Shown: positions 12,826 to 60,354 of the stretch, one piece after another
How the letters are laid out: every line of letters starts with the position of its first letter
How positions within the stretch are numbered: the stretch's first letter is position 1
Assembly: GCA_022827885.1 (NCBI GenBank)
Contig: JAJEIP010000008.1
Coordinates: 768 to 64,767 of the forward strand
Direction: 5' to 3'
Length of the DNA stretch: 64,000 bases
Source: Candidatus Poribacteria bacterium
GTDB lineage: Bacteria > Poribacteria > WGA-4E > WGA-3G
The notes under the pieces: generated by a model
The model's input: only the letters and a program-made list of their open reading frames with translations
Told to the model about the DNA's origin: nothing
Database searches by the model: none
Program-made: the position numbers and the translations under genes

Positions 12826-12873
12826 GCCACCAACTTCCGTTAATTGTAGATTTTGCTGTAATGGAGAAACCTG

Positions 12874-39028: not shown

Positions 39029-39111
39029 AGAAAGGAGAGCATTTGTGCCTGGCACTCGTCAGGTAGAAAAGGCGTTTCGGCGTTATACGGTGCCTAACTC
39101 CAAAGCCCATA

Positions 39112-39918: not shown

Positions 39919-40041
39919 AGTAGGGTAGGCGCGAGTCTTTTGTATAGGTCGGATCAGCACGAGCGAGGAATCTAATCTTCGGCGGAAGCACGCCAGCACG
40001 GTGATCGTGATCGCGTGACTTCCCAAAAGGAGCAGAAGAAT

Positions 40042-40908: not shown

Positions 40909-40947
40909 GACATTTAAGAATAGTAATCGGAAGGCAGGAGGCAAAAC

Positions 40948-41092
40948 CCGTAGTTCGTAATGAAATTATGCCTTAAATGGCATAATTTGTCTTAGCTTTA
41001 CATTTGGAGAGCAGATCTACGGGGAGGCACTTGAAAGTTTCCAATCCACCTGACCGAACCGTAAGGAAAATTAGAAAAAGGGAGAAAATTTC
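40948..41092 (+). repeat. Long-form leader cassette copy 2
   Basis: Left module 40948-41013, near-identical to copy 1, with hairpin 40963-40972/40979-40988. Middle CTACGGGGAGGCAC...CCACCTGACCGAA. Right module CCGTAAGGAAAATTAGAAAAA at 41059-41079. GTG at 41093. Confidence 0.8.
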
Positions 41093-44000
41093 GTGAGGAG
41101 CAAAAAGGAAATTCCTGCTGAGAGTAAGTCGTATTCTGCTTTGTTCTTTATTCTATCCGGATTGTTGGGATTGGTGACGATATGGGGATTCTGGAGTGAG
41201 ATGATTACTCGGCGCCCATGGAAGCAGATCCAGCAGCAATTTTATCAATATGAGTATGAAAAGACACACGCGGAATTAGAGAACGCAAAATTGGCGTTGC
41301 CTGAACTTCCTACACCTCAAGAGCCGGATGCCAAGGCACTCGCACAGTTAACGAAGGAGGTCAGGAACGCTCAAGTCGCCTTGGATGAAGCACTGCAGGA
41401 ACGCAAATTCCGACAGAGCGAGTCGGATGCTATTAACTATAAATATCAGCACAGCCTCCACGAAGCGAAGGGGAGACACAATGAGACTGTTGACAAATGG
41501 CAGAAGAAGTTAGCAGATTTCGAGTCCCAAATTGAAGGCGAACTCACCGAAGCCGTTTTGGGAGCGGAAGCCACCTTTGCAAGCGCGAACGTAGCTCTGG
41601 CGCAGTTTTATCAAGCCAATGGGGACGCACAAAGTGCCCTGAGTACCTACCTCATCGCCCAGAAATATAGTCCTACAGATACAGAAATCACTACAGGGAT
41701 CACCGCCGCACAAGCCTCTCTTGCGTCACTGCAAGCCGACAAAGCAAAACACGACGAAGTTGCGCTTCTTGAAGAGAAACTACATTCCGTCGGGGGTATC
41801 AAGCGGACCTTCTTGGGGAGTCTGTTAGAGAACCCTTTCCGTGAAACACGCACCATCGTTCAATACTATCTTGAAGACTTCAATCATACCGCAGACAGGT
41901 GTGCTACCTGCCATTTCTCCGCCGATAGAAGCGGTTACGATCAATCCGCGCAAGAGATATTTGAAGTGGAAGGGGATGGCGAGAATCCTGTTGTGCAGCG
42001 TCTCAAGCACGCAAGCATCAAGGTCGGTAGTGAAAATGTTATAATTGATGGATTTGAAGCGGAAGCCGATGAATATACATTGGAGGAAAACGGGACACTT
42101 ACCTTCAGTGACGTGGATGTCTTCGGTGAAGTTGAAATCTCTTATGAGACCGGCTATCGTTCCGTCCTTCAAACGCATCCGCACCGCGATGTCCTGCTCG
42201 ACAAACACCCTGTTGATAGATTTGGATGCACCCCGTGCCACGGTGGGCAGGCACAGGCACTCACAGCGAAATCCGCCCACGCCTTGACACATGCTGAATA
42301 CTGGCTCACGCCTGTCCTCGGATTAGATGAGCATACCGGTAGAACGTCCGAAGAGACGAAAGGCTATATGGAATCTAACTGCCGCCGCTTCCACGACGGC
42401 GTGATGATGTTAGATTACGGTGTGAATCCTGAAACAGATGAACCGCAGGACTATGCCCCGAATTTGACGAAGGGATTGGCACTCTTTGAAGACCTCGGAT
42501 GTCACGGATGCCACGCTGTTGAAGGGTATAGCGCAATCGATAATATCGCCAAAGTGGGTCCATCACTTGCGAAAATCGGCAGTAAGGTGAAAGATACGGC
42601 ATGGCTTGAAAGTTGGATTAAGAAACCCGAAGCCTATCTCGCAAATACGACAATGCCGAATTTCTTCCCTGCTGATGGCATGACGCAGCTTGTCTATCTC
42701 AAGAACGGCGGGCAGCGCACTGGCGTTGTTACCAAAACCGCCACTGGCATTGTCATTAAAACAGACGATGGCACGGAATATCCCTATCCCGACAGTTATG
42801 TCCTTCGCATTGTTGATGAGGTGAAATCTATCTCGGCTTACCTCGCCGCGATGAACGATGCCGATTTGGACGCATCCAGTTCTAATTATTCCACATCCGA
42901 AAGGGCTATTAAGGCAGGCGAGGAGACCGTCAAAACCGTTGGCTGCCTCACGTGTCATGCTGTTGACGGTTTAGGAAGTGATTTTGCCCCGGCACTCGAC
43001 AGTGTTGGTGCAAAAGTTACAGCGAATTATCTCCGCCAGTGGATTGAGGATCCAAAAGCTTATGACCCGGATACAAGTATGCCGAGTTTGCGATTAAGTG
43101 CCGGCGAACTTGACAACGTCGTTTCCTATCTGATGAGTCTGCAGCAAGCAACAACAGACGTGGCTACGGACTCCATCGGTGAGGTAGATGTCGCTGAAGG
43201 TGAAGCACTCGTCAGGACTTACGGATGTTTCGGGTGTCACGAGATTCCCGGTTTTGAAGATGAGTCAAAGGTCGGTGCGGATCTCGGCGAGTTCGGCGCG
43301 AAATTGGCTGATGAACTTGACTTTGGTGATACAGTTGACGTTGAACACAATTGGACGGGATGGACGGTCGGTAAAGTTACCAATCCACGACGTTATCAAA
43401 CGCGACGGATTGCTTCTCGGATGCCGGTCTTCCAGATTAATGATGAAGACGCGAGAGCGATCGCCGTGCTCTTGAAGAGTTTCCAACCCGAGCAGTATCC
43501 GCTGAGTTATATCCATAACCGATCCGAGAAATTGAACGACATTGATGCGGGTAGACGATTGGTGAAAAAGTATAACTGCACGGGATGCCACGAGATTGAA
43601 GGCGCCGGCGGCGATTATCAGGAGGTTATCATCGCACACGAAGGGTTGAGTGAGATGGTTGCCAAACAAGTTGCACCGCCACCCTTGAAAGCGGAAGGCG
43701 CGAGAGTGTATCCAGACTGGTTATTTACGTTCCTCAAAGAACCTTCAGACATCCGATACGGACTCAAGGTCCGGATGCCGACGTTCGAGTTATCTGATGA
43801 CGAAGCGACAACGCTGGTTAAATACTTCTCCGCGCTTGACGATGAGCCGTTCCCTTATGAAACACTTGAAACGCCAACACCGACGCGTGCTGAATTGCGA
43901 GTGGGTAAGCAGATTTTTGACACACTTCAGTGTATCTCCTGTCATCCAGCGAAAGGTGAAGCGATTCCTGAAGGGAGCGACAAGGCAGGACGACCCGATC

Positions 44001-44203
44001 TTGCGTTGGCGAAAGAGCGACTCAAGGCGGATTGGCTCATTGATTGGATGAAGGATCCGCAGTCGTTCCAACCCGGAACAGCGATGCCGCAAGCATGGCC
44101 CCTCGTTGGTGGACAACACATGCCACTCGACGGCTATGCTGATAATGATGCTGAAAAACAGATTCGGCTCGTCCGAGATTACCTCATCTCCTTGGGACGC
44201 TGA
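41093..44203 (+). CDS. Membrane-anchored multihaem cytochrome c (7 CxxCH) of the bc-type complex
   Basis: 1036 aa with an N-terminal TM segment and a coiled-coil-like region. CxxCH motifs: CATCH, CTPCH, CHGCH, CLTCH, CFGCH, CTGCH and CISCH. Confidence 0.85.
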   Translation: MRSKKEIPAESKSYSALFFILSGLLGLVTIWGFWSEMITRRPWKQIQQQFYQYEYEKTHAELENAKLALPELPTPQEPDAKALAQLTKEVRNAQVALDEALQERKFRQSESDAINYKYQHSLHEAKGRHNETVDKWQKKLADFESQIEGELTEAVLGAEATFASANVALAQFYQANGDAQSALSTYLIAQKYSPTDTEITTGITAAQASLASLQADKAKHDEVALLEEKLHSVGGIKRTFLGSLLENPFRETRTIVQYYLEDFNHTADRCATCHFSADRSGYDQSAQEIFEVEGDGENPVVQRLKHASIKVGSENVIIDGFEAEADEYTLEENGTLTFSDVDVFGEVEISYETGYRSVLQTHPHRDVLLDKHPVDRFGCTPCHGGQAQALTAKSAHALTHAEYWLTPVLGLDEHTGRTSEETKGYMESNCRRFHDGVMMLDYGVNPETDEPQDYAPNLTKGLALFEDLGCHGCHAVEGYSAIDNIAKVGPSLAKIGSKVKDTAWLESWIKKPEAYLANTTMPNFFPADGMTQLVYLKNGGQRTGVVTKTATGIVIKTDDGTEYPYPDSYVLRIVDEVKSISAYLAAMNDADLDASSSNYSTSERAIKAGEETVKTVGCLTCHAVDGLGSDFAPALDSVGAKVTANYLRQWIEDPKAYDPDTSMPSLRLSAGELDNVVSYLMSLQQATTDVATDSIGEVDVAEGEALVRTYGCFGCHEIPGFEDESKVGADLGEFGAKLADELDFGDTVDVEHNWTGWTVGKVTNPRRYQTRRIASRMPVFQINDEDARAIAVLLKSFQPEQYPLSYIHNRSEKLNDIDAGRRLVKKYNCTGCHEIEGAGGDYQEVIIAHEGLSEMVAKQVAPPPLKAEGARVYPDWLFTFLKEPSDIRYGLKVRMPTFELSDDEATTLVKYFSALDDEPFPYETLETPTPTRAELRVGKQIFDTLQCISCHPAKGEAIPEGSDKAGRPDLALAKERLKADWLIDWMKDPQSFQPGTAMPQAWPLVGGQHMPLDGYADNDAEKQIRLVRDYLISLGR

Positions 44204-44253: not shown

Positions 44254-44610
44254 ATGAGACACCTTGCGGTCATTATCGTCATGATTATGGTATGGCTCAA
44301 CGGCTTAATCTGGTTGGCTAAGCAGGTTGACCCGAGTACGAAGTATCAGTCAGAGGTTGAATACAAATACGCTCGGTATTGCGCGGGATGCCACGGCAGC
44401 AATGGAGAGGGCAACGGACGTATCGGACGTTTCAAAAAGTTGGATCCCGCAGACCTGACAGACAGCGATCTTTGGGATATGCACAGCGACGAACAGTTGC
44501 TGGAGAGCATCAATGCGGGAAAGCACGATATGCCGGCGTTCTATTATTACCTCAATGATGAGGAGCAACGGGAGATACTCGCCTATATCAAGGAGATGTT
44601 TCGTCCGTAA
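44254..44610 (+). CDS. Membrane-anchored monohaem class I cytochrome c
   Basis: 118 aa with an N-terminal TM segment, CAGCHGSNGEGNG and a distal DMPAF (Met ligand region). Confidence 0.8.
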   Translation: MRHLAVIIVMIMVWLNGLIWLAKQVDPSTKYQSEVEYKYARYCAGCHGSNGEGNGRIGRFKKLDPADLTDSDLWDMHSDEQLLESINAGKHDMPAFYYYLNDEEQREILAYIKEMFRP

Positions 44611-44731
44611 CTTGAAAGCATCTTTTTCGGGAACTTCGTTCGGATTTTAAGTCTTTTTGTTTGCATTTTGAAATTCTGTGGTGTTAATATATTACTGAAC
44701 AAATTTAAAACATATAAGGAGAAACCAAATT

Positions 44732-45481
44732 ATGAAAGTTTTCGTCTCCCTTCTTGTCGGCACGATGCTTGCAAGTGCTGCGTTCGCAGGGACCATCACC
44801 GGCACTGTAATGTATGAAGGCGACGCACCGGCGCGTCCTGCCTTGACGGCTACCAAAGATCAGCATTGCATTGACGCTGTAACAGGTACGAAATCCGAGG
44901 CACTCGTTGTCTCAAAAGGAAAGGGCATCAAAAACGTCGTTATTTACGCCCGCGTCCGTGGCGCGAAACCTGTCGTCCCGGATAAGAACCCAGTGATGGA
45001 CCAGAAGGCATGCGCTTACTATCCGCACGTCCTCGCGGTTGTTGCTGGCTCTACTGTTGATATTACCTCCAGCGATCCGATCGCACACAACGTCCACTCT
45101 CACGCGAAAAAGAACGACGCGATAAACTATCAGATTCCACAGCCCGGCAAGGTCATCCCGCACAAAATCGCCAAGGCTGAGGAAATTAAGTTTACCTGCG
45201 ATATTCACGCATGGATGACGGGTTACATCGTTGCTGTTCCTAACAACTTTTTCACGGTTACGGGTTACAAAAACGCTGATGGCGCATGGATCAGTTCTGA
45301 TGCCTATGAAAAATCCGCGGATACGGGGAGTTATTCAATCGCTGAGGTGCCAGCCGGTAGAGCCCGTGTCGTCGCATGGCATGAAGAGCTCGGTTCCGCA
45401 AACAAAACCGTTGAAGTGCCAGCGAGTGGCGATATTGCTGTAAATTTCACAAGTGCTGACTTCAAAAAACGTGCCAGATAA
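44732..45481 (+). CDS. Secreted cupredoxin (type-1 Cu, amicyanin-like C-x2-H-x2-M) with C-terminal CarboxypepD_reg-like domain
   Basis: Signal peptide. Putative Cu ligands are HNVH...CDIHAWM. The C-terminal segment is GSYSIAEVPAGRARVVAWHEELG. It is a paralog of 51873..52655. Confidence 0.65.
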   Translation: MKVFVSLLVGTMLASAAFAGTITGTVMYEGDAPARPALTATKDQHCIDAVTGTKSEALVVSKGKGIKNVVIYARVRGAKPVVPDKNPVMDQKACAYYPHVLAVVAGSTVDITSSDPIAHNVHSHAKKNDAINYQIPQPGKVIPHKIAKAEEIKFTCDIHAWMTGYIVAVPNNFFTVTGYKNADGAWISSDAYEKSADTGSYSIAEVPAGRARVVAWHEELGSANKTVEVPASGDIAVNFTSADFKKRAR

Positions 45482-45501
45482 ATAGCCGAAAGCCATAAAA
45501 A

Positions 45502-47400
45502 ATGTCTAATAAGAAGCTTTATCTCATACTTGGCTGTGTATTCATCGCGTATACCGTGCTACTAACCGTTGCACCGGCATTTGCACAGGACGCGACCGAA
45601 GCAGAATATCGCGCCTTCCCCAAGATCGGCAGCCGAAATGCGGCATGGATCGCTGCCCAACTCCACCTGTTGTTCGGATCTTTTATCCTCGGTGTCCCGA
45701 TGTTTGCCGTCATCATCGAATTTATCGGCTGGAAGACGAAGGACATGCGATATGATCGGATGGCGCAGGAGTTTATCAAGCTCTGTATGGGCGCGTTTTC
45801 AACGACAGCCTTGCTCGGCGGTGTTCTCGTCTTTATCCTCATCTGGTGTTATCCGAAAGTCATGACGAAACTCAGTGGGATATTCGGACCGACGATGATT
45901 TTTTACGTCATCCTGTTCTTCGGCGAAACCTTTACGCTTTACCTTTACTCCTACGGATGGGATAAGATGCAAGGGCGCCATAAGGGGTGGCATCTCTTCC
46001 TCGGCGTGCTTCTGAATGTATTCGGCACTGCGATTATGTTCGTTTCTAACGCATGGTTGAGTTACCAAACCAGTCCGGCAACCCAATACGGTGTCCTCTC
46101 TGAAGGCAGACGGAAATCTTGGATTGAGGAGAAATTGGCTGCGGATCCAGCACTCACGCCTGAGACCGCTATGGAAGGTGTCACAAGCCATACGATGGTG
46201 CCGCTTCACAATGAAACGACCGGCGAGTTCATGGGAACCGTTTGGGATGCCGTCAACAATTTTACATGGATGCCGGTTAACATCCATCGCCTCGTGGGTA
46301 ACATTGCCTTCGGAGGCTCGATTGTTGCGGCTTATGCGGCGTTCCGATTCCTCGTCGCGAAGACGAAAGAGGACAAAGCACATTACGATTGGATGGGCTA
46401 TACCGGAAACTTCATCGCACTCTGTGGACTGATACCTCTGCCTTTCCTCGGTTATTGGCTCGGTAGAGAAATCTACATGTTCAACAACACGATGGGCATT
46501 AACATGATGGGTAGCCTCTTTTCGTGGCTATTTATCATTCAGGCAGTTATGATCGGGGTCCTGTTTATTGGCGCGAACTACTACCTCTGGTCAGGCATGG
46601 GGCGGATCGAAGGGGCGGAGATCTATGCACGATACCGTCCGTATATGATTACCGTTATCATTATTTGTGTCGCAATCTGGATGACCCCGCGGACGCTTTC
46701 TAAGATTTCAACTGCCAGCGAACTGAGCGCGATGGGCGGTGCAAACCACCCACACCTCGGATTGTTCGGCTTGATGACTGCCAAAAATACGGCAGTTAAC
46801 ATCATCATTCTCACGACCTTCTTGAGTTTCCTATTTTATCGGCGTTCAGGGAAGATACCTACGGCGAGTTGGAAAAAGATAGGCAACATTGGGATCTCCG
46901 CTCTCTTCTTCCTCGCCACCGTTTCCATCGTGGTTATCGGCATCGTTGGGTTTACCGTCCCGACAGATTTGCGGGTCAATATCCTTACGCCGTATCAGGT
47001 CCTGGTTGCACTCGCGGTGATGGCAATCGTCACAATCGTTGATATTTTCATGTACCGCAAGGCGACAACATCTGGCACTATCAAATGGGGGGAGATGACG
47101 GATCGCTCCCAATACGTGTTAATTCTCGTGGCAATTACGTTCACTTCTTTGATGGGACTGATGGGATACGCACGCTCAGGGTTGCGAGAGGCGTGGCATA
47201 TCTTCGGTGTGATGCAAGATACATCTCCGGATGCGTTTACGCCGCTTCTCAGTGAGGCGGTGAACATGGTGGCAATCATCATGGTAGCTTTCTTCGCGCT
47301 CGTCGGATTTATTTTCTGGCTCGGTTTGTGGGGTGAAAAGAAGAAGGAAGAGAAGGCAGCTACCCCCGAAGCCGCTGTTACTGCTGAGGGTGATGACTAA
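45502..47400 (+). CDS. Cytochrome bd subunit I-like (CydA-like) membrane protein lacking a Q-loop and a CydB partner
   Basis: 632 aa. Aligns by eye with the canonical CydA in this window: QLHLLFGSF vs LAFHIIFAV; FFGETFTLYLYSYGW vs FFLEAIFLGLYLYGW; VSNAWLSYQTSP vs TANAWMNTPTG; NIHRLVGN vs TLHMTIAA. It has extra C-terminal TM helices and an N-terminal signal/anchor. Confidence 0.7.
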   Translation: MSNKKLYLILGCVFIAYTVLLTVAPAFAQDATEAEYRAFPKIGSRNAAWIAAQLHLLFGSFILGVPMFAVIIEFIGWKTKDMRYDRMAQEFIKLCMGAFSTTALLGGVLVFILIWCYPKVMTKLSGIFGPTMIFYVILFFGETFTLYLYSYGWDKMQGRHKGWHLFLGVLLNVFGTAIMFVSNAWLSYQTSPATQYGVLSEGRRKSWIEEKLAADPALTPETAMEGVTSHTMVPLHNETTGEFMGTVWDAVNNFTWMPVNIHRLVGNIAFGGSIVAAYAAFRFLVAKTKEDKAHYDWMGYTGNFIALCGLIPLPFLGYWLGREIYMFNNTMGINMMGSLFSWLFIIQAVMIGVLFIGANYYLWSGMGRIEGAEIYARYRPYMITVIIICVAIWMTPRTLSKISTASELSAMGGANHPHLGLFGLMTAKNTAVNIIILTTFLSFLFYRRSGKIPTASWKKIGNIGISALFFLATVSIVVIGIVGFTVPTDLRVNILTPYQVLVALAVMAIVTIVDIFMYRKATTSGTIKWGEMTDRSQYVLILVAITFTSLMGLMGYARSGLREAWHIFGVMQDTSPDAFTPLLSEAVNMVAIIMVAFFALVGFIFWLGLWGEKKKEEKAATPEAAVTAEGDD

Positions 47401-47423
47401 CAGAGGCGATGGAACAAAGTGCG

Positions 47424-47574
47424 CAGCTCGTAATGAAATTAGGTTCTCCTTAAATGGCATAATTTGTCTTAGTTTTACATTTGGAGAGCGGATTTAAGAG
47501 CGGCACGCTAACACCCAAACCTATGTCATTTAACCGCAAGGAATAATTAAAAAGCCGCAAGGAATAATTAAAAA
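47424..47574 (+). repeat. Long-form leader cassette copy 3 (hairpin left arm disrupted; right module tandemly duplicated)
   Basis: CTCGTAATGAAATTAGGTTCTCCTTAAATGGCATAATTTGTCTTAGTTTTACATTTGGAGAGCGGAT. CCGCAAGGAATAATTAAAAA occurs at 47534-47553 and again at 47555-47574, and ATG 47575 follows directly. Confidence 0.8.
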
Positions 47575-49083
47575 ATGTCAAGAGATACGCTGATAAAAAT
47601 CGCGAGTCTCATCTTAATGGTGGTGAGTTTTGTCGCCTATATTGCCGGGGCATCGGCGTTTCCGGTCGCCTCAGAGAACTTGTTACCTTGGTCGGTTTGG
47701 TTTCTCATTTCGGTAATTATAAATATCGTTTTGTGGTCGAACGTCATGAAGCTGTTGACGTTTTCGCTTGCCGTGATATGGTTTTACGCCTTCGTCGCCG
47801 GGCTGGTCCCGGAAAGTTCCACAGCGGTGAATCTGACATCGCTGGATTGGAGCGATCCGGATGCAGTTGCTGAACAGGGTGCCTTAGTCTTTAACGGCAA
47901 AGGGCAGTGTGCCGCATGTCATACCGTTGATCCATCGGCACCACCAGGAAGGTGTCCCGATCTGACAGACATCGGCATTAACGCCGCCAGTCGCGTCCCA
48001 GGTACGGATGCCAAAACCTATCTCATCGAATCGCTTTATGAACCTCACAAATATCTTGTGCCCGGATACGGCAAAATTATGCCAGAGATTTGGAAGGCTC
48101 CCATCGCCCTCTCTAAATTGGAGATTGAGGCAGTTATCGCTTACCTCCAGAGTCTCGGTGGTGAGATCGATCCAACACCCTTTGATGAACCGATAGATCG
48201 GGCGGATGCGGGGACAAGCGCTGAGGCACTTCCACCCCTCCTGACGGGGGATCCAGAACTCGGCAAAAAGGTATTTGTGACTGCAGCGTGTATCTCGTGC
48301 CACGCTGTGACAGGTATAGAAAGTCCAGCTGCAGGTGAGACGAGTACAGATTTTGAAGTCGTCACTGCGCCCGACCTCTCTGAAATTGCCGCCTTTAACG
48401 ACATGCGGTATCTTGAGGAGTCGGTCTTGATCCCCAACGCGCAAATCGTAAGCGGTTACGGTGCCGTTATCGTCCGTGCGAACGGAACGACCTATCAAGG
48501 AACCCTTGTTTCACAGGATACAGAACAGATTGTCGTCCGAACCAAAACCGCGGATGGCGTTGAAGAGGAGCATACCCTCTTATTGAGCGAACTCGACGAT
48601 GAGCCGATTGAAGAACTTAGTAATCTGCAAGCGAGAGGTTATTTTACGTTGACACTAACGCCTACGAATTCGGATGCGCCAGTGAGTGGCGAGATCGTTT
48701 CGGAAACCGATGACACTGTGACGCTTAAGATCGGTGGCGAAGATCGGTCTTTTTCCAAGACAGATGTGAAAAGCCAGATGACGGTTATCACTTTTGATGG
48801 CGATGAAATTGTTGGCGACTACGTTTCAGGCTCGATGGACGACGACGAAATCATCCTCGTCGTTGACGGTAGCGAGGAAATCTTTGATACGTTTGATCTT
48901 GAGGAAGCGACCTTTACCCGTGCCTCTGGCAAGAAATTGCTGGTTACGTCACCGATGCCCGAAAACTTTCCGCTACTGTTATCGGTATCGGATATGAGCA
49001 ATTTGCTCTCCTTTTTAAGCACACTCACTGGCGCGACAGCGGAAGCAGCACCAGTAGAGACAGATGACGCTTCCGCCGAATAA
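47575..49083 (+). CDS. Membrane-anchored dihaem cytochrome c with PVC-type haem-binding-domain tail
   Basis: 3 N-terminal TM segments. CAACH and CISCH. Three small beta-repeat units, then SPMPENFPLLLSVSDMSNLLSFL (the S.MPEGL...DLLAYL-type ending of the Pirellula/Verrucomicrobium haem-binding domain). Confidence 0.8.
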   Translation: MSRDTLIKIASLILMVVSFVAYIAGASAFPVASENLLPWSVWFLISVIINIVLWSNVMKLLTFSLAVIWFYAFVAGLVPESSTAVNLTSLDWSDPDAVAEQGALVFNGKGQCAACHTVDPSAPPGRCPDLTDIGINAASRVPGTDAKTYLIESLYEPHKYLVPGYGKIMPEIWKAPIALSKLEIEAVIAYLQSLGGEIDPTPFDEPIDRADAGTSAEALPPLLTGDPELGKKVFVTAACISCHAVTGIESPAAGETSTDFEVVTAPDLSEIAAFNDMRYLEESVLIPNAQIVSGYGAVIVRANGTTYQGTLVSQDTEQIVVRTKTADGVEEEHTLLLSELDDEPIEELSNLQARGYFTLTLTPTNSDAPVSGEIVSETDDTVTLKIGGEDRSFSKTDVKSQMTVITFDGDEIVGDYVSGSMDDDEIILVVDGSEEIFDTFDLEEATFTRASGKKLLVTSPMPENFPLLLSVSDMSNLLSFLSTLTGATAEAAPVETDDASAE

Positions 49084-49187
49084 TTTTAATCTATTGTTTC
49101 TGAGTTGCTGCGTCCGTTGTCCTTGCAGATATTGAATCGTTAAAAAAATATTTCATAACCTAAAAAAGGTGCTTTATCAATTTTAGA

Positions 49188-49215
49188 TCGGGGTTGACAA
49201 CGGAAACCCCGACCC
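49188..49215 (-). repeat. REP-like hairpin (GGGTCGGGGTTTCCGTTGTCAACCCCGA)
   Basis: 8-bp stem TCGGGGTT/AACCCCGA between two cytochrome c genes. Confidence 0.55.
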
Positions 49216-49234
49216 GAAGCACATAGTTAAAAAA

Positions 49235-50011
49235 ATGAAAAAGCTGTCACTCTTCACAATATGTCTCATAGTTCTGGTGGGTTCTTGGGTTGTCCTGCGG
49301 TTTGCCATTGGTGGCATCGTCTCAGTACCAATACCGGGCAGCGTGATTGCGATGTATATGGGGTTGATTATAATCGCGATCTTGGTGCATATTTCCGTTG
49401 AGGACTCACTCTTTCGGGAATTTCTGCGGCCTATCCGTGAAACACTCGTCGAGGACAGACGTCAAGTCCGCCGCCGCGTGATCGCGGTGTTAATCCCGTT
49501 GTTCCTGCTCGGTTATACCTATTCGATTATCGCCCAGCGCGCGAATCCCCCTGGAAGCCCACGTGACGCGCACCCGTCGCCGCCGCTTGAATTAACCTAT
49601 AAAGATGAGGTTATCGGCACGATGCAAGATGTCGTGAATCCCTTCCGACATTATGAAAAAGATGATCCGGAGGCGTTCAAGGCGCATGTTGAGAACGGCA
49701 GGCGCGTCTACTACCAAAACTGCTTTTACTGCCATGGGGATCACCTTGATGGACAGGGGCATTTCGCACCCCATCTCCAACCGCTTCCTGCGAATTTCCA
49801 AGATCCGGGGATTATTCCTAACTTCCAAGAGGCTTTCTTCTTTTGGCGAATAGCGAAGGGTGGACCCGGATTGCCTGCAGCTGGCACGCCTTGGGATTCG
49901 GCGATGCCTATCTGGGAGAACCACTTAACAAAAGACGAAATTTGGGACGTAATTCTCTTTCTATCTGAATACACCGGTTATCAGTTCCGAACCTTTGGGG
50001 AGGCACACTAA
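49235..50011 (+). CDS. Membrane-anchored monohaem cytochrome c
   Basis: N-terminal TM helices. GRRVYYQNCFYCHGD...MPIWENHLTKDEIWDVILFL follows a class I cytochrome c pattern. Confidence 0.8.
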   Translation: MKKLSLFTICLIVLVGSWVVLRFAIGGIVSVPIPGSVIAMYMGLIIIAILVHISVEDSLFREFLRPIRETLVEDRRQVRRRVIAVLIPLFLLGYTYSIIAQRANPPGSPRDAHPSPPLELTYKDEVIGTMQDVVNPFRHYEKDDPEAFKAHVENGRRVYYQNCFYCHGDHLDGQGHFAPHLQPLPANFQDPGIIPNFQEAFFFWRIAKGGPGLPAAGTPWDSAMPIWENHLTKDEIWDVILFLSEYTGYQFRTFGEAH

Positions 50012-50013
50012 AA

Positions 50014-51735
50014 ATGAAGAACAGAAATGTAACTCTCCTGATGCTGGTTTTGGGAATAGTAGTAGGCACACTCCGTTGTGCCGTAACATACGCCCAAAAT
50101 GCCCCAGAGGCTTCTGAGAAAGGGAAAGAGGTATATGACCAAAGCTGCGCCCACTGCCACGGAACGGAAGGACGCGGCGACGGTTCTGCCGCTGAGAATC
50201 TCCTGCCGAGACCGAGGGATTTCACACGCGGTTTGTATAAGATTCGATCTACAGAGAGCGGTCAACTCCCGACGGATCAGGACCTCTTTGACATTATTAC
50301 CATAGGGATGCCCGGATCGTCAATGCCCGGTTGGGAAACCTCCCTAAGTGCCGACGATCGCTGGGAAGTTGTGGCATATATCAAAACCTTTTACGATGGG
50401 TTTAAAGCGGGGGAAGCCCCCCGGGAAATCAGTCTGGATGGTAAAATCCCTTACGCTGAGCAGAGCGTGGAAACTGGAAAGGGACTTTATGTTGAACTCG
50501 GTTGTGTGGAATGCCACGGTAATATTGGACGGGGTGATGGTACGTCCGCGCCTACGTTGACGGATGAATGGGGGTTCCAGACGTGGCCCGCGAATTTGGC
50601 ACAGAGTTGGAATTTTCGAGGCGGTGCTGACACGGAAGCCATTTTCAAACGATTCATCGGCGGGATCGCAGGCTCACCCATGCCGGCGTTTGAAGGCGAT
50701 AGTTTCCTGCATTTCGGATTGACGGTGGAAGAATCCAAACGGCTCACCGAATTGGAAAACAAGGATGAAATGACGGAGACAGAGGAAGCAGAATCCGAGA
50801 AGTTTTACGAGAAAATGGATGCCGCCGTTAACCTCGCACTCAATCGGACGGAAGGCATAGAGCTGACCGCGGCTGAGCAGCAGACATACGATGACGCGAT
50901 GCAGGTTGTCTATGAAAAGAGTTGGCATTTAGCGAACTACGTTAAATCTCTCGCGCCTGAACAACGTCCGGAACCTGCGATCGGAAAAAACGTCCTCCGC
51001 TCACAATACGTTCAGGATGCACTGCCGGGAATGGAAGACCCTGTGTGGGAAACGCTTCAAGCCAGGCACTTCCCGCTTGTTGGACAGATCGTCATTGAAC
51101 CTCGACAGTTCAATCCAACAATTGATTCTGTGGATGTCAAATCGTTTTATAACGACACGGAAGTGGCGTTCCTCTTCACGTGGGATGATCGGACACACAC
51201 GATTGGCGACGAAACCGATGAGACGACTGGGAAACCCCTTGAGGACGCGTTAGCGATTCAATTTCCAGTGAAGGTGCCACAGGGGCCGACCGCACCGAAG
51301 CCTTATTTCTTATGGGGCGGTAGGTTACCGGTCTATCTCTGGCACTGGAAAGCTTCGACTCCGGAGCAGGTAACCGAGCTGACGGCTAAGGGAATCAACG
51401 CTGCCGAAGTTCAGGAAGCACAAGGGGCGTTACAAGCGCAAGGTGTTTACACAGATGGGCAGTACAAATTGTGGGTAAAACGTGCCTTGAAGACTGATGA
51501 CAAAAAGGACTTACAACTTGACCCTGGCGTCTTTGTGCCTATCGCCTTCTCCGCATGGGATGGCGCGAACGGCGATGTCGATGCAAAACGGGTCGTGTCC
51601 AGTTGGTATACTTTTGTACTTGAACCCGTTCCGTCTTCAAGACGGTTCGTTTATCCGCCTTTGATTGCGATTCTCTCTCTCGGCTTGCTCTTCGGTTTAC
51701 GGGCAGCTGTCCAACGGAGAAATTCAGTTTCCTAA
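50014..51735 (+). CDS. Dihaem cytochrome c fused to an EB_dh (ethylbenzene-dehydrogenase gamma/DOMON-like haem b) domain, C-terminal TM anchor
   Basis: CAHCH and CVECH. EB_dh pattern: DALAIQFPVK...PYFLWGG...VYLWHWKAS...IAFSAWDGANGD...SSWYTFVLEP. The terminal hydrophobic helix is PPLIAILSLGLLFGL. Confidence 0.7.
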   Translation: MKNRNVTLLMLVLGIVVGTLRCAVTYAQNAPEASEKGKEVYDQSCAHCHGTEGRGDGSAAENLLPRPRDFTRGLYKIRSTESGQLPTDQDLFDIITIGMPGSSMPGWETSLSADDRWEVVAYIKTFYDGFKAGEAPREISLDGKIPYAEQSVETGKGLYVELGCVECHGNIGRGDGTSAPTLTDEWGFQTWPANLAQSWNFRGGADTEAIFKRFIGGIAGSPMPAFEGDSFLHFGLTVEESKRLTELENKDEMTETEEAESEKFYEKMDAAVNLALNRTEGIELTAAEQQTYDDAMQVVYEKSWHLANYVKSLAPEQRPEPAIGKNVLRSQYVQDALPGMEDPVWETLQARHFPLVGQIVIEPRQFNPTIDSVDVKSFYNDTEVAFLFTWDDRTHTIGDETDETTGKPLEDALAIQFPVKVPQGPTAPKPYFLWGGRLPVYLWHWKASTPEQVTELTAKGINAAEVQEAQGALQAQGVYTDGQYKLWVKRALKTDDKKDLQLDPGVFVPIAFSAWDGANGDVDAKRVVSSWYTFVLEPVPSSRRFVYPPLIAILSLGLLFGLRAAVQRRNSVS

Positions 51736-51872
51736 TTATCGGGCGTTTGCGCTGCCGTCCACTGTGTTTCAGGCAGGCTTTCGGTCAACTCACGCCTCAT
51801 ACTTAACCAAAAACCATCGCGAAACGTAGTGGAGCGATGCCCAGATTCCAATAGTTAAAAAAAGGAGAAAAA

Positions 51873-52655
51873 ATGAAAACCTATTTCTTGGCAAGTCTTG
51901 CTATCCTTCTCGCGTGCTATTATGTCGGTAGTGCTTTTGCAGCTGACAGCGGTGCGGGCGAAGTGGAAATGTTAGTATTTCCTGATGCCTATAGTGCTGG
52001 AAGCGTCAGCAATGGCGGCACAATTAGCGGCGTTGTGAAGTTTGAGGGAGACATGCCTGAAATGAAAGTACTGGAAATCACAAAAGATCAAGCAGTTTGT
52101 GGTGCTACCGAAAAGTACGATGAATCGGTCGTTGTCGGTGAAGGCAACGCTTTAAAAAATACCATTGTCTACCTCATCGACGTTTCAAAAGGCAAAGATT
52201 TTGACAAAGCCACCAAGCTGGAAATGGATCAGAAAGGCTGCAAGTTCACGCCGCATGTCCAAATTGTTCCGGTTGGTGCTCGGTTGACGATGCTCAATAC
52301 CGATAAAGTGAATCACAACGTCCATATCTTCAGCAGTATCAACAAGCCGGTTAACAAACAGCAGACGAAAAACCGCAGGAAAATGCCCCTTGCTGGTGTA
52401 AAAAAGGCGGAAGGACCCGTCTCTGTCAAATGTGACATTCACGGATGGATGTCCGCTTGGATCGCTTACATCCCGCATCCGTATTTTGCTGTGACGAATG
52501 AAAAGGGTGAATTCACACTTGAAGATGTGCCAGCGGGTACCTATAAACTCGGTTATTGGCATGAAGCATGTGGCACGAACAGCGGTTCTCCCGCTTCTGT
52601 TACCGTAGAAGCCGGTGGTAGCGTAACACAAGATTTCACACTGAAACTGAAGTGA
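51873..52655 (+). CDS. Secreted cupredoxin (type-1 Cu) with CarboxypepD_reg-like domain, paralog of 44732..45481
   Basis: HNVH...CDIHGWM ligand set. GEFTLEDVPAGTYKLGYWHEACG. The stop overlaps the GTG start of the ABC ATPase gene (GTGA). Confidence 0.65.
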   Translation: MKTYFLASLAILLACYYVGSAFAADSGAGEVEMLVFPDAYSAGSVSNGGTISGVVKFEGDMPEMKVLEITKDQAVCGATEKYDESVVVGEGNALKNTIVYLIDVSKGKDFDKATKLEMDQKGCKFTPHVQIVPVGARLTMLNTDKVNHNVHIFSSINKPVNKQQTKNRRKMPLAGVKKAEGPVSVKCDIHGWMSAWIAYIPHPYFAVTNEKGEFTLEDVPAGTYKLGYWHEACGTNSGSPASVTVEAGGSVTQDFTLKLK

Positions 52656-53563
52656 TTGACGTAGAAAATCTCTCGCATTCATATCAGAAACGACGCGCCC
52701 TTGACAAGGTCAGTTTTAGCGTCTCATGCGGCGAGATTTTCGGGCTCCTCGGACCGAACGGGAGTGGAAAAACGACCCTTTTTAAGATTTTGTCCACCCT
52801 GATGCCGATAACCTCCGGTCGTGTGCGTATCTTCGGACATAATGTGGCTGCTGAGGTGAAGACGGTTCGGGAGCTCTTAGGTGTTGTTTTTCAACACCCA
52901 GGACTCGATGGCAAGCTTACCGTCGTTGAGAATTTACGGCACCACGGACACCTGTATGGGCTCGCTGGTAAAACACTCCGTCACCGGACCTCGGAACTCC
53001 TCGAACGTTTTGGGGTCGCCGATAGAGCGAAAGAACCTGTTGAACGCTTATCAGGGGGGTTACAAAGACGCGTTGAAATCGCGAAAGCGATGCTCCATTC
53101 CCCACGTGTTCTACTTCTTGACGAACCAACGAGTGGATTGGATGTCGCTGCGCGCCGGCAGTTCAACGACGCTCTCGGTGCCCTCGCGCATACAGAAAAT
53201 ATCCTCGTTCTGTTGACAACGCATCTCCTCGATGATGCGGAGGCGTGCAACAGGGTCGGTATTCTGGATGCAGGTAGGCTCGTCGGCCTCGGACCTCCTG
53301 ACGAACTCAAGGCGCACGTCGGTGGTGATGTTGTTCTCATAGAGTGCGTAGACACTGAAGTCCTCCGCACCGGGATTGTTGAGAATTTCGGCATTTCACC
53401 AGTGCTGACCGATAATCACCTTCGGGTTGAATGTGAACGCGGACATGAGTTCGTCCGAGATTTAGTTGCCGCTTTTCCAGATGAGGTTCAATCGGTTCGA
53501 TTTGGGAAACCGACGCTGGAAGATGTGTTCATAAAATTGACGGGTCATCTAATTTTTTCTTAA
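52652..53563 (+). CDS. ABC transporter ATP-binding protein (ABC-2/NosF-like subfamily)
   Basis: GPNGSGKTT Walker A, LSGGLQRR signature and LLLDEPTSGLD Walker B. Confidence 0.9.
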   Translation: MIDVENLSHSYQKRRALDKVSFSVSCGEIFGLLGPNGSGKTTLFKILSTLMPITSGRVRIFGHNVAAEVKTVRELLGVVFQHPGLDGKLTVVENLRHHGHLYGLAGKTLRHRTSELLERFGVADRAKEPVERLSGGLQRRVEIAKAMLHSPRVLLLDEPTSGLDVAARRQFNDALGALAHTENILVLLTTHLLDDAEACNRVGILDAGRLVGLGPPDELKAHVGGDVVLIECVDTEVLRTGIVENFGISPVLTDNHLRVECERGHEFVRDLVAAFPDEVQSVRFGKPTLEDVFIKLTGHLIFS

Positions 53564-53564
53564 A

Positions 53565-54335
53565 ATGCCGATTGCAACGATATGGTGGCGTGAAATCATC
53601 AGATTTTATCGCCAGCGGAGTCGACTCTTCAGTGCTATCGCGCAACCGTTAGTATTTTGGTTGCTCATCGGAAGCGGCTTGAGTGCCTCTTTTCAGCCCT
53701 CGGGTGAAACCGGCGAGATGAGTTATATTGAGTACTTTTATCCCGGCATCGTCGTTTTGGTCTTGCTTTTTACGTCCATTTTCGCTACAATTTCTGTCGT
53801 GAATGACCGACGTGAAGGTTTTTTGCAAGGTGTACTCGTGGCTCCCGTGCCAAGATGGCAGATTGTGCTCGCACAGGCGTTAGGCGGCACGACCTTGGCA
53901 CTCTTGCAGGGTGTTCTGTTGCTATTCCTCGCACCCATGACCGACATCCGATTGGGTGCTGCGTCGCTCTTTGCCACGCTCGGTATAATGGCACTTTTGG
54001 CGTTTGGTTTGACAAACCTCGGGCTCCTCATCGCATGGCGGATGGAATCAACGCAAGGGTTTCATGCGATTATGAACCTCCTGCTGATTCCGATATGGTT
54101 ACTCTCTGGCGCGTTTTTTCCGAGCGCGGGCGTACCCAGTTGGTTAGAATGGACAATGAAATTCAATCCGTTAACGTATGGGCTTGCCGCTTTTCGGCAG
54201 AGCCTCTACCTTGACACCCCCGCGAAGGCAATTGGAGAGGGATCGGCGTGGACCCTCTCTTTGCTGATTACCGGTCTGTTTTGTGTTTTGACGTATTTAG
54301 GGGCAACGCTTACCGCGTCTGCACAGGCAAATTAA
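53565..54335 (+). CDS. ABC-2 type transporter permease
   Basis: 256 aa with 6 TM segments. The size and topology are typical of ABC-2 (NosY/NatB-like) permeases, and it lies directly after the ATPase gene. Confidence 0.75.
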   Translation: MPIATIWWREIIRFYRQRSRLFSAIAQPLVFWLLIGSGLSASFQPSGETGEMSYIEYFYPGIVVLVLLFTSIFATISVVNDRREGFLQGVLVAPVPRWQIVLAQALGGTTLALLQGVLLLFLAPMTDIRLGAASLFATLGIMALLAFGLTNLGLLIAWRMESTQGFHAIMNLLLIPIWLLSGAFFPSAGVPSWLEWTMKFNPLTYGLAAFRQSLYLDTPAKAIGEGSAWTLSLLITGLFCVLTYLGATLTASAQAN

Positions 54336-54407: not shown

Positions 54408-55070
54408 ATGCTTCAATGGCTCCCAGAGAACGTATCAACGTTCGGGCAAGGCGTTGATAACCTCTTTTACGGTATTTACTATCTTACCCTTGTTGTGTTC
54501 ATCCTTGTGATGGGAACCCTTATCGTTTTCCTGATTAAATATCGACATCAGGAAGGAAAAAGGGCAGATTACATTGAAGGTAGCACAACGCTGGAAATTG
54601 TCTGGACCGCCGCTACAACGGTGATTGTCTTCGGACTCGCGATGCTTAGTTACCCGCAGTGGAATAATATTAAGTCGCCAACACAATTTCCTGATAATCC
54701 AGATGTCGTCGTCCAGGTCAGTGGAAAACAGTTTAACTGGGATATGACCTACCCCGGACCTGATAACGAATTGGGAACGGATGATGACCTGAAATTGGAA
54801 AACGAATTGCATGTGCCGGTCAACGCGGTCGTGCATATCCGCTTAACCTCTGAGGATGTCATCCACAGTTTTTTTGTGCCGCAATTGCGACTGAAACAGG
54901 ATAGTTTGCCCAACCGATTTATCAACGTCTGGTTTGAGGCAACAAAAGCAGGTCGTTATGAGATTCCGTGCGCCGAATTGTGTGGATTTGGACACTCCGG
55001 GATGCTCGGGTATCTCAATGTGCATACGCAGGAAAGCTACGATGCCTGGGTGCAAGAAAGATGGCCGTAA
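54408..55070 (+). CDS. coxB: Cytochrome c oxidase subunit II (CuA, no fused cytochrome c)
   Basis: 2 TM segments plus a cupredoxin domain. VIHSFFVPQL...CAELCGFGHSGM is the CuA motif. Confidence 0.9.
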   Translation: MLQWLPENVSTFGQGVDNLFYGIYYLTLVVFILVMGTLIVFLIKYRHQEGKRADYIEGSTTLEIVWTAATTVIVFGLAMLSYPQWNNIKSPTQFPDNPDVVVQVSGKQFNWDMTYPGPDNELGTDDDLKLENELHVPVNAVVHIRLTSEDVIHSFFVPQLRLKQDSLPNRFINVWFEATKAGRYEIPCAELCGFGHSGMLGYLNVHTQESYDAWVQERWP

Positions 55071-55085
55071 AGGAGGAGAATAACG

Positions 55086-56909
55086 ATGCACGATAACGAA
55101 CATGCGTCACATCATCACGAAGAAAGTTTTATTAGCAAATATATCTTTTCGCTCGACCACAAGATGATCGGCAAGCAGTTCCTGATCTACGGACTGCTTA
55201 TGTTTTTCCTCGGTGGTGGGCTTGCACTCCTCTTTAGATGGCAACTCGCCTATCCCGAAAAACCGTTACCCATCATCGGGGCATCGGAACAGTATATGGA
55301 AGAGGGTGAAGTCGTCACCGGTGCCGACAGGATGTGGGAGAATATTTACGAATCCGAGAAAGAGGAATGGCTTGAGGTAAACATGCCCAACGGCGTCGTC
55401 GAACCGGCATTTTACAATATGCTGTTTACGATGCATGCCACCATTATGGTGTTCTTCGTCGTGGTTCCGATCTTGGTAGGGGCTTTCGGAAATTTCCTGA
55501 TTCCGTTGATGATTGGCACACGGGATATGGCGTTTCCTATCCTCAATATGCTCTCATTTTGGTTGGCTGTCCTTGCGGCAATTATTATGGTCGTCGGTTT
55601 CTTTGTCCCCGGCGGACACGCTGCAGCCGGATGGACAGGCTACGCACCCCTCTCCTCTGACCCGCAGTGGACAGGTGTTGACTGGGGACAGAACCTCTGG
55701 GCGATTAGCCTGCTCATTCAAGGGTTCTCCTCACTGGTCGGGTCTATTAACTACATTACGACGATTATCAATATGCGCGCACCTGGAATGACGTTCTTCC
55801 GACTCCCGTTGGTCATCTGGTCGCTCTTCATCGTCGCGATTCTGTTGCTACTCGCATTCCCTGTGCTGTCCTCAGCCCTTGCACTTCTCATCTTTGATAG
55901 GCTTGCGGGAACGACGTTCTTTACTGCGACCACAGAAGGCGGCGGCGATCCGCTCTTGTGGCAGCACCTCTTCTGGTTCTTCGGACACCCAGAGGTCTAT
56001 ATCCTTATCTTACCCGGCATGGGGATCGCTTCCGAATTGATTGCTGTCTTCTCACGGAAACCGATCTTCGGATATCGTTCCATGGTCTACGCAATGATCG
56101 CCATCGCGTTTCTGGGATGGATTGTGTGGGGACACCACATGTTCCAGAGCGGTATGCGACCCGGACTCGGCTCTGTGTTCATGACGACAACGATGCTCAT
56201 TGCGGTGCCGTCAGCCATCAAGACATTTAACTGGCTCGGCACAATGTTCCGAGGTGCAATCAAATTCACGACACCGATGCTCCACGGTATTGCCTTTGTT
56301 TCAATGTTTGTGATTGGTGGATTGAGCGGTATCTATATGGCAAATACGCCGGTTGATATCTTTATCCACGATACCTACTACATTGTCGCACACATTCACT
56401 ATGTTGTGTTCGGCGGAAGTCTGTTCGCTATTTTCGGGGGCATTATTTTCTGGTTCCCGAAGATGTACGGACGCTATATGAACGATGTGCTCTCCAAAAT
56501 CCATTTTTGGTTGACGTTCATCGCGTTCAACTGTACCTTCTTCCCGATGCATATTCTCGGCGTGGGTGGACACATGCGGCGTATCTCCAACCCGATGCAG
56601 TATGAATTCCTGCAGACGTTTGAGGGCATGAACATCTTTATCACGATGAGTGCGTTTACCCTTGGGTTTGCACAGTTGATATTGGTCTTTAACTTCTTCT
56701 GGAGCATGTATCGAGGAAAAGTTGCCGAACAGAACCCGTGGCAGGTGACTACCTTGGAGTGGGAGGCACCCACACCTGTCCCACACGGCAATTTCGGTCA
56801 AATTCCGACTGTCTACCGGGGTCCCTATGAATATAGTGTTCCCGGCGAAGAGGATGATTGGACCCCGCAAGCGCGGCCTGAGCATGCGCCCGCAACAAGC
56901 GGTGACTAA
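55086..56909 (+). CDS. coxA: Cytochrome c oxidase subunit I (A-type haem-copper oxidase)
   Basis: 607 aa with WFFGHPEVYILILPGMG and HHMF...VPSAIKTFNW...HDTYYIVAHIHYV. There is an insertion of about 45 aa in the first periplasmic loop. Confidence 0.95.
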   Translation: MHDNEHASHHHEESFISKYIFSLDHKMIGKQFLIYGLLMFFLGGGLALLFRWQLAYPEKPLPIIGASEQYMEEGEVVTGADRMWENIYESEKEEWLEVNMPNGVVEPAFYNMLFTMHATIMVFFVVVPILVGAFGNFLIPLMIGTRDMAFPILNMLSFWLAVLAAIIMVVGFFVPGGHAAAGWTGYAPLSSDPQWTGVDWGQNLWAISLLIQGFSSLVGSINYITTIINMRAPGMTFFRLPLVIWSLFIVAILLLLAFPVLSSALALLIFDRLAGTTFFTATTEGGGDPLLWQHLFWFFGHPEVYILILPGMGIASELIAVFSRKPIFGYRSMVYAMIAIAFLGWIVWGHHMFQSGMRPGLGSVFMTTTMLIAVPSAIKTFNWLGTMFRGAIKFTTPMLHGIAFVSMFVIGGLSGIYMANTPVDIFIHDTYYIVAHIHYVVFGGSLFAIFGGIIFWFPKMYGRYMNDVLSKIHFWLTFIAFNCTFFPMHILGVGGHMRRISNPMQYEFLQTFEGMNIFITMSAFTLGFAQLILVFNFFWSMYRGKVAEQNPWQVTTLEWEAPTPVPHGNFGQIPTVYRGPYEYSVPGEEDDWTPQARPEHAPATSGD

Positions 56910-56924
56910 TTTTCTAATATAGGC

Positions 56925-57860: not shown

Positions 57861-57874
57861 GGCAGATATAAAGA

Positions 57875-58810: not shown

Positions 58811-58830
58811 CCGCAAGGAAAATTAAAGAG
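58811..58830 (+). repeat. Cassette 3' module only (CCGCAAGGAAAATTAAAGAG) before the DUF805 gene
   Basis: Directly between the ctaB stop and ATG 58831. Confidence 0.6.
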
Positions 58831-59438: not shown

Positions 59439-59468
59439 AATAAGAAGCATCTTGATTGCGAGATTGAA

Positions 59469-60020: not shown

Positions 60021-60033
60021 AGGAATTGTTAGA

Positions 60034-60327: not shown

Positions 60328-60354
60328 TTTTTTAACGGAAAGGAGTAAAATGTA

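Follow-up and report, generated by a model that had tools for sequence, protein, structure and literature searches.

The cytochrome bd superfamily has been split into the qOR, OR-C and OR-N families (Murali, Gennis and Hemp 2021, bioRxiv 10.1101/2021.01.16.426971). The OR-N proteins have no quinol site, and their first four helices are common with CydA. The helix count is 14 for OR-N1 as for OR-N2, and operons with OR-N2 frequently contain no other CydA-like gene (10.1101/2021.01.16.426971). In recent comparative papers OR-N is given the putative role, still to be confirmed by experiment, of an O2 reductase that oxidises cytochrome c. Here we describe a bd-like gene module of Candidatus Poribacteria in a 64-kb window (the whole stretch of DNA analysed), and compare it with these systems. 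The subject matters because the terminal oxidases of Nitrospira and Nitrospina, key organisms in nitrogen cycling, are presumed to be OR-N bd-like enzymes.

Several studies cover the same kind of gene set in an NXR-associated cluster with a bd-like oxidase (Lücker 2010/2013, de Almeida 2011, Mundinger 2019). The cluster is shared by Kuenenia, Nitrospira and Nitrospina. Besides a bd-like oxidase of 14 helices, three of which stand in place of the Q-loop, it encodes two cupredoxin-like proteins, an alternative NxrC and two cytochromes c, a monohaem and a dihaem one (Lücker 2013, PMC3578206). The alt_NxrC proteins combine c-haem sites with an EB_dh-type domain (PMC3578206). In N. moscoviensis, the genes of the bd-like_3/alt_NxrC_2/two-cytochrome cluster rank in the top 40 by transcription, and another bd-like gene adjoins a complex III (Mundinger 2019, PMC6606698). 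OR-N is the sole candidate O2 reductase in several cultured Nitrospira, and Nitrospirales have been proposed to pair OR-N2 with OR-N1.

A preliminary description of the window had listed seven open reading frames (ORFs) for the module, all on the + strand, and the ORF list bore this out. We refer to the CydA-like core as BDL, to the cytochromes c as c1, c2 and c3, to the fusion of a dihaem cytochrome c with an EB_dh domain as c4EB, and to the cupredoxins as cup1 and cup2. The genes are as follows.

c1: 44254..44610, + strand, small monohaem cytochrome c with a membrane anchor, CAGCH at 43
cup1: 44732..45481, + strand, cup2 paralogue (32% identity), predicted ligands H119/H122, C156, H159 and M162
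BDL: 45502..47400, + strand, 632 aa, probable OR-N2-type bd-like subunit with an N-terminal signal/anchor helix, ~14 membrane helices and no Q-loop
c2: 47575..49083, + strand, membrane-anchored dihaem cytochrome c, CAACH at 112 and CISCH at 239
c3: 49235..50011, + strand, monohaem cytochrome c, CFYCH at 163, N-terminal hydrophobic helices
c4EB: 50014..51735, + strand, 'alt_NxrC'-type protein in which a dihaem c domain and an EB_dh domain (DMSO-reductase type II gamma-like) lie between a signal peptide and a C-terminal transmembrane anchor
cup2: 51873..52655, + strand, predicted periplasmic type-1 copper protein, amicyanin-like and ending in an Ig-like (CarboxypepD_reg) domain

The proposal that BDL is a CydA homologue was supported by Pfam, profile-profile and structural comparisons alike. 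BDL scored 62 bits against Pfam Cyt_bd_oxida_I (PF01654; cut-off 26.2, E 4.9e-17), with the match limited to profile positions 3-238 of 418. A BDL profile was built from 30 diverse homologues and used for both hhalign and AlphaFold2. In hhalign it matched the canonical CydA of the same window with a probability of 98.2% (E 5e-14), collinearly over BDL 40-609 and CydA 14-435. The signal sat in the N-terminal 190 residues of BDL (E 4e-15), and the C-terminal part alone was not significant (E 0.02-0.03). PDB CydA chains matched BDL at the sequence level at E 3.5e-6. The AlphaFold2 model, with a mean predicted local distance difference test (pLDDT) value of 87.0 and a predicted template modelling (pTM) score of 0.86, contained the N-terminal signal/anchor and the extra helices that had been expected. 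It has about 14 membrane-length helices besides the anchor, the exact count hinging on residues 379-393 and on the signal helix. The best 10 PDB matches of the model in Foldseek were all CydA (E 6e-9 to 2.6e-6, target TM 0.48-0.58), followed by weak CydB chains, and unrelated membrane folds appeared only at E values of at least 0.2. An NrfD/PsrC-type or transporter fold, named beforehand as the finding that would speak against the homology, was therefore excluded for BDL; Pfam and hhalign also gave CydA.

The canonical CydA used for comparison lies at 11424..12755 and matches Cyt_bd_oxida_I end to end with 520 bits; a CydB gene follows it. Its start had been placed at 11457, and the longest ORF begins at 11424. 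The four motif pairs proposed between BDL and this CydA proved to be alignment columns, namely H55/H29, E142/E116, SNAWL/ANAWM and H262/H193. The Q-loop motif AMEAQWETERGAPL (residue 262 of the window CydA) had no counterpart in the BDL alignment. Extra helices fill this region, and the loss of the Q-loop was thus confirmed. We compared the ORFs of 80 related genomic loci against the window proteins and looked for CydB within +/-10 kb of BDL. No CydB-like ORF was found there in any of the 80 loci, in agreement with its reported absence beside BDL. A CydB hidden in the C-terminal half of BDL was ruled out (hhalign E of at least 0.12 against CydB), as was an internal duplication (E of at least 0.02 between the halves); the single strong hit in these comparisons came from overlap between the sub-alignments themselves. 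CydX-like small ORFs were looked for in the intergenic gaps of the module and none was plausible.

The residues equivalent to functional positions of canonical CydA were assigned as H55 (His19), Y135 (Glu99), E142 (Glu107), Y149/Y151 (F114/F116), H164 (His126), H262 (His186), M425/N429 (M393), S559 (Glu445) and W565 (Trp441). The equivalents of His19, Glu107, His126, His186 and Trp441 were kept in every phylum sampled; H55, which corresponds to a ligand of the active-site haem, was near-invariant over the 30 diverse homologues and was found in all phyla sampled. In contrast, the active-site Glu99 and Glu445 of canonical bd are replaced in BDL by invariant Tyr135 and Ser559. The family also has two new invariant His residues of its own, H416 and H566, the latter adjoining the Trp441 equivalent. 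We derived the topology from the AlphaFold2 helices and the positive-inside rule. In this model, H55, H262/R263, Y361, E407, H416, M425/K428/N429 and R558/S559/W565/H566 would lie at the periplasmic face, and E73, E142, Y149/Y151, H164 and D296 in the cytoplasmic half. In bd oxidases, the haems are near the periplasmic face and the proton channel is in the cytoplasmic half.

These residues also placed BDL within the superfamily. The OR-N2 signature comprises H99, Y183, E190, Y197, Y199, H213, H269, M430/N434, S563 and W569 (Table S6 of 10.1101/2021.01.16.426971). BDL matched it at all mapped positions (H55, Y135, E142, Y149, Y151, H164, H262, M425/N429, S559 and W565), with the same spacings save for small indels and a longer loop between the fourth and fifth transmembrane helices. 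OR-N1 has Gly at the E107 position (10.1101/2021.01.16.426971). Table S3 of the same work gives qOR2 and OR-N for Poribacteria, which correspond to the two bd-family genes of this window, and gives OR-N for every other phylum of our synteny survey too. Taken with the partner genes described below, these comparisons make us highly confident that the locus is an OR-N2-type bd-like module, orthologous to the cluster of a bd-like oxidase, two membrane cytochromes c and alt_NxrC (with or without cupredoxins) that is known in Nitrospira, Nitrospina and anammox bacteria. The module type is therefore already catalogued, its gene set having been described in 2010-2019, and the locus adds another member rather than a new system. 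The subfamily, the 14 helices, the Q-loop replacement, the cytochrome c and ebdC-like partners, the two cupredoxins and the presence in Poribacteria are all in print.

The BDL family is large, with 1032 clusters (50% identity) at E <= 1e-3. The homologues nearest in identity (75-93%) belong to Candidatus Poribacteria, and one Poribacteria locus (L030, OY764016.1), from a metagenome-assembled genome (MAG), showed 100% identity in the locus scan.

The c-type cytochromes of the module contain exactly the six CxxCH motifs that had been counted, one in c1, two in c2, one in c3 and two in c4EB; a motif scan found none in BDL. The C-terminal domain of c2 is long and acidic, and the protein also has a TIGR02603-type tail. 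In c3 the conserved residues are C163/C166/H167/M224. A membrane His of c3 was considered as an extra haem b ligand and was ruled out, since it is not conserved.

The c4EB protein starts 2 nt after the c3 stop, as had been noted. It contains two PF13442 domains and a PF09459 domain (66.9 bits, cut-off 33.3), and it scored 92.5 bits against TIGR03477, below the family cut-off of 169.85. Its dihaem part is ~50% identical over the aligned stretch to chain B of PDB 6h5l (E 2e-44), the partner of an anammox HAO-like enzyme. Its EB_dh part matched PDB 7b04_C (Kuenenia NxrC, E 5e-8) and 2ivf_C (EbdC, E 2e-7). The fusion to an EB_dh domain thus held at the level of homology; the description of this part as a haem b domain did not fare equally well. 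EbdC holds its haem b by Met and Lys (PMC8840923). Both EbdC Met residues of the aligned region are replaced by non-Met residues, the invariant Q416 and L433/W434, in c4EB and 52 orthologues. With the EbdC ligands numbered Met108/Lys201 (after Kloer et al. 2006), the Lys201 column holds R526 in c4EB, and the neighboring K525 is found in 40 of the 52 orthologues. No Met, His, Lys or Cys was at least 80% conserved in the EB_dh domain (residues 340-535) among the 52 orthologues; only tyrosines were, and at Y431, 50 of the orthologues have Tyr and two have His. We also considered Q416 as a substitute for the ligand Met and dropped it, the EbdC Met in that column being M96. Without the Met/Lys ligands, the haem b label is an assumption. 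The EB_dh domain of c4EB would either use another ligation or bind no haem.

For cup1 and cup2, Pfam detected no cupredoxin domain and found only the C-terminal CarboxypepD_reg-like domain. A cross-phylum cupredoxin profile of 26 sequences matched amicyanin (E 2e-7), the blue-copper protein 5fc9 (6e-7), the type-1 copper domain of NirK (4e-6) and pseudoazurin (2e-4) in the PDB. In cup2, H148, C187, H190 and M193 (His...Cys-x2-His-x2-Met) aligned with the PDB ligands and were invariant in the 26 sequences, and the copper-ligand positions were at least 90% conserved in 42 orthologues. The assignment of both proteins as type-1 blue-copper proteins, and with it the two copper sites predicted earlier, therefore holds at the sequence level. 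The upstream placement of cup1 is specific to Poribacteria, and cup2 stays with the module across phyla. A 172-aa CarboxypepD_reg protein of Nitrospirota was tried as a cup1 homologue and rejected for lack of similarity.

Conservation of the neighbors, a check proposed earlier, was followed over the 80 loci, and the partners turned out to be strongly syntenic with BDL across phyla. In all 80 loci c2 follows BDL, with a median gap of 15 nt. The order BDL-c2-c3-c4EB, usually with the cup2 orthologue next, was found in Poribacteria, Latescibacterota, Acidobacteriota, Rokubacteria/Methylomirabilota, Myxococcota and Gemmatimonadota. In a Nitrospirota MAG, BDL is followed by orthologues of c2 (E 3e-26) and c3 (41% identity, E 3e-67). 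The core gene order is kept in at least seven phyla. Over 69 loci, c3 and c4EB are separated by a median of 2 nt, and in six Rokubacteria/Methylomirabilota loci (L060, L065, L067, L068, L073 and L075, at about 12.6-14.9 kb in each) the two are fused into one protein of 752-761 aa with three CxxCH motifs. By the Rosetta-stone argument, this fusion indicates that c3 and c4EB are subunits of one complex.

Some variants of this arrangement were also seen. A Myxococcota MAG carries two complete, divergently arranged BDL modules (L064:2235-15510), with BDL copies 45% and 52% identical to the query. In Acidobacteriota and Gemmatimonadota, proteins combining Usp with PCP_red, and a radical-SAM/SPASM protein with PCP_red, recur beside the module (L047:14936-17023, L050:12303-14432, L078:6544-9999); these could be regulatory or cofactor-maturation partners. 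A Manganitrophaceae/Nitrospira-type BDL paralogue with 36% identity lies beside a NuoF-like (Complex1_51K) gene in L081-L083 (10001-11914 in L081). The Manganitrophaceae paralogue has no cytochrome c partners, and the Manganitrophaceae and P0165 homologues are lone paralogues in unrelated contexts.

In the window, the module is flanked by further respiratory genes and an exporter pair:

complex III-like genes: 38540..44203, + strand, Rieske protein, cytochrome b, subunit IV-like protein and 7-haem cytochrome c
ABC-2/DrrAB-type exporter pair: 52652..54335, + strand, between cup2 and coxB, kept in Poribacteria loci
aa3-type haem-copper oxidase cluster: 54408..61005, + strand, coxB, coxA, ctaA, ctaB and two coxC-like genes

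Both the canonical bd oxidase and the aa3 oxidase reported for the window were found. The coxC-like pair consists of tandem subunit III-like genes (183 and 216 aa, 59469-61005) downstream of ctaB. The start of abcA, the first gene of the exporter pair, overlaps the cup2 stop by 4 nt; the pair is DrrAB/ABC-2-like, and NosFY- or CcmAB-type maturation genes were ruled out. In 13 loci of Rokubacteria/Methylomirabilota and Gemmatimonadota, cup2 is followed on the same strand by coxB-coxA-ctaA-ctaB after a gap of 9-132 nt. The same linkage, with the ABC pair in between, is seen in those Poribacteria loci that extend far enough, and in Latescibacterota the cox genes are convergently downstream of the module. 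The module had been described as inserted between complex III-like and complex IV genes; this wording is misleading, because the aa3 linkage is conserved across phyla. The linkage to Rieske, cytochrome b and 7-haem cytochrome c genes was found in Poribacteria only, and in Nitrospirota in another order.

Immediately before the Rieske gene come a strong terminator-like hairpin with a 15-bp stem (38194-38229) and then a sigma-70 consensus, perfect at 12/12 positions and carrying an extended TG (38285-38313). No comparable + strand terminator was found from there to 57900, where the scan ended. This arrangement suggests one long (>20-kb) respiratory transcription unit from the Rieske gene onward, although the promoter and terminator scans were overall at chance level.

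Our preferred reading of the function, held with middling confidence, is that the module is a cytochrome c/cupredoxin-oxidising bd-type O2 reductase that would work independently of quinol and in parallel to the aa3 oxidase. The argument is that the active-site His and the proton-channel Glu and His are kept, the quinol loop is lost, and periplasmic high-potential carriers are gained; every conserved partner of BDL is predicted to be a periplasmic or membrane-anchored carrier of this kind. BDL, c2, c3 and c4EB would form one membrane complex, in keeping with their conserved order and the c3-c4EB fusion. The reading is also favored by the high transcription of the cluster in N. moscoviensis and by the lack of any other candidate O2 reductase than OR-N in several cultured Nitrospira. 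Electrons would enter from the periplasmic side via the c-type haems and/or the amicyanin-like cupredoxins, which are probably reduced by the upstream Rieske/cytochrome b complex, and would then pass to b-type haems that BDL holds close to its periplasmic side. A b558-like haem would likely be bound by H262/M425, and the active-site haem by H55; more speculatively, H566 may replace the Glu ligand of the third haem that was lost at Ser559. O2 would be reduced at the haem site of the periplasmic face, with protons taken from the cytoplasm via E142 (the Glu107 equivalent) and H164 (the His126 equivalent), and this charge separation would build a proton motive force. The preliminary description had already proposed a cytochrome c or cupredoxin donor in place of quinol, for an alternative oxidase or a reductase. 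That proposal coincides with the working hypothesis for OR-N and agrees with the missing Q-loop; the function itself we likewise infer.

Several points weigh against an O2 reductase. The strictly anaerobic anammox bacteria carry orthologous modules, and they have no obvious need for O2 reduction. The haem d/b595 pair may not be conserved in BDL, which has Tyr and Ser in place of Glu99 and Glu445, and the cofactor content cannot be read from sequence. The genome already contains canonical bd and aa3 oxidases. In addition, the module is apparently co-transcribed with aa3 in three phyla, which fits electron feeding at least as well as a second oxidase. Finally, the literature that we searched held no biochemical or structural study of an OR-N member, in line with the earlier remark that none has been characterised.

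These points leave room for other explanations. The module might be a quinone-coupled electron-transfer complex resembling complex III or alternative complex III (ACIII), with a new quinol/quinone site in the extra helices of BDL, feeding the downstream aa3 oxidase. Flow would then run between the quinone pool and the c haems or cupredoxin, and in the reverse direction in nitrite oxidisers. The tight cup2-cox linkage in the 13 loci and in Poribacteria would suit such a role, as would the absence of Rieske/cytochrome b genes near the module in non-Poribacteria loci (Nitrospirota apart), and the presence of the module in anaerobic anammox bacteria fits a function other than O2 reduction. A role of this kind was raised for the module of nitrite-oxidising bacteria (Lücker 2013, PMC3578206; Mundinger 2019, PMC6606698). 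However, all quinol-binding residues of CydA are gone and no new site was identifiable, the O2-site His and proton-channel residues are strictly kept, and in Poribacteria and Nitrospirota the Rieske/cytochrome b complex in the same cluster would make a second quinol oxidase redundant. We consider this explanation unlikely. Less probable still is a periplasm-fed reductase of another small oxidant (NO, nitrite, H2O2 or peroxynitrite), whether detoxifying or respiratory. The exchange of Glu99/Glu445 for invariant Tyr135/Ser559, the new invariant H416 and H566, and the resemblance of the c4EB dihaem domain to 6h5l chain B could reflect a different substrate. A paper on Nitrospinota notes that detoxification of O2 and NO is a further activity of canonical bd oxidases, and treats such a role as open for OR-N. 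Against this, no sequence feature pointed specifically to an alternative substrate, N-oxide genes were absent from the window and the sampled flanks, and a role in aerobic respiration is indicated by the linkage to genes for aa3 and for haem A synthesis.

A docking or electron-exit station in the membrane for a periplasmic enzyme of the type II DMSO-reductase (NXR-like) family, with EB_dh as the gamma subunit, appears extremely improbable here. It draws on the homology of the EB_dh domain to NxrC and EbdC, and on the occurrence of the module in or near the NXR clusters of Kuenenia, Nitrospira and Nitrospina, where it was proposed as an NXR anchor. Yet the 64-kb window contains no molybdopterin or NXR gene, and none adjoins the module in the loci sampled from Acidobacteriota, Rokubacteria, Myxococcota and Gemmatimonadota; an NXR linkage was therefore rejected for these sequences. 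Moreover, OR-N is retained in Nitrospinota that do not oxidise nitrite, according to a recent comparative paper, and c4EB does not keep the Met/Lys pair that ligates haem in true gamma subunits. The module occurs, without an NXR gene close by, in lineages that are not known to oxidise nitrite, and this shows that it is a general respiratory unit and not an NXR accessory. For Poribacteria, Rokubacteria/Methylomirabilota and Gemmatimonadota we also entertain, as a rather improbable idea, a hybrid bd-like/haem-copper terminal segment in which OR-N2 and aa3 are wired by cup2 in one transcription unit, or else a previously unrecognised BDL entry complex, on the quinol or donor side, that replaces complex III. 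If either were true, the 'NXR anchor' role would have been acquired secondarily by a module of general respiratory function.

The observations that are new from this analysis are the independence of the module from NXR across many phyla, the c3-c4EB fusion in some lineages, the operon-level linkage to aa3, the EB_dh domain without canonical Met/Lys ligands, and the invariant H416 and H566. The host is uncultured, and for OR-N function the locus narrows the possibilities. The c3-c4EB fusion, the aa3 operon linkage and the loss of EB_dh ligands define a four-subunit target for structural biologists and a testable link to aa3.

Two other genes of the window stood out. A 581-aa protein with ~10 eukaryote-like WD40 repeats is encoded at 24416-26161 on the - strand, in the sole GC-rich block (0.568 vs about 0.49). 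On the same strand, 27712-30669 encodes a 985-aa fusion of an ECF-type sigma-70 factor (regions 2 and 4) with BNR/sortilin-type beta-propeller repeats.

Among the known systems compared with the locus, the ACIII-caa3 operons resemble it in that an electron-input complex is linked by operon to an aa3-type oxidase, but ACIII is an unrelated complex of the NrfD/PsrC type, a fold that Foldseek excluded here. OR-C likewise combines c-type haems with a membrane module that has no canonical quinol loop; it differs in having eight helices and its CxxCH motifs within CydA itself. The canonical CydAB (qOR; 11424..13932 in the window, PDB 6rko/5doq) has the CydA fold, the 'GRQPW' motif and the His19/Glu107/His126/His186/Trp441 equivalents in common with BDL. 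In contrast to it, BDL has neither Q-loop nor CydB, Tyr in place of Glu99 and Ser in place of the b595 Glu, about five extra helices, an N-terminal signal/anchor, and cytochrome c and copper partners.

The NXR-associated cluster of Kuenenia, Nitrospira and Nitrospina contains the same protein types with the same alt_NxrC architecture. It differs from the present locus, whose host lineage is presumably heterotrophic and sponge-associated, in that here no NXR, TorD-like chaperone or multicopper oxidase is nearby and aa3 genes are linked instead. The closest match is OR-N2, which includes the NIDE0901-like or 'bd-like' oxidases of Nitrospira. The two are alike in their ~14 helices, the missing quinol site, the identical signature residues and the CydA homology in the first helices. 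They are also alike in an operon with cytochromes c and an ebdC homologue, often without a second CydA, and in the proposed cytochrome c donor. Unlike the pairing proposed for Nitrospirales, this cluster has no OR-N1 partner. In its defining features the module does not differ from OR-N2, and what is local to this locus is the cupredoxin pair, the upstream Rieske/cytochrome b and 7-haem cytochrome c genes, and the downstream ABC pair and aa3 oxidase.

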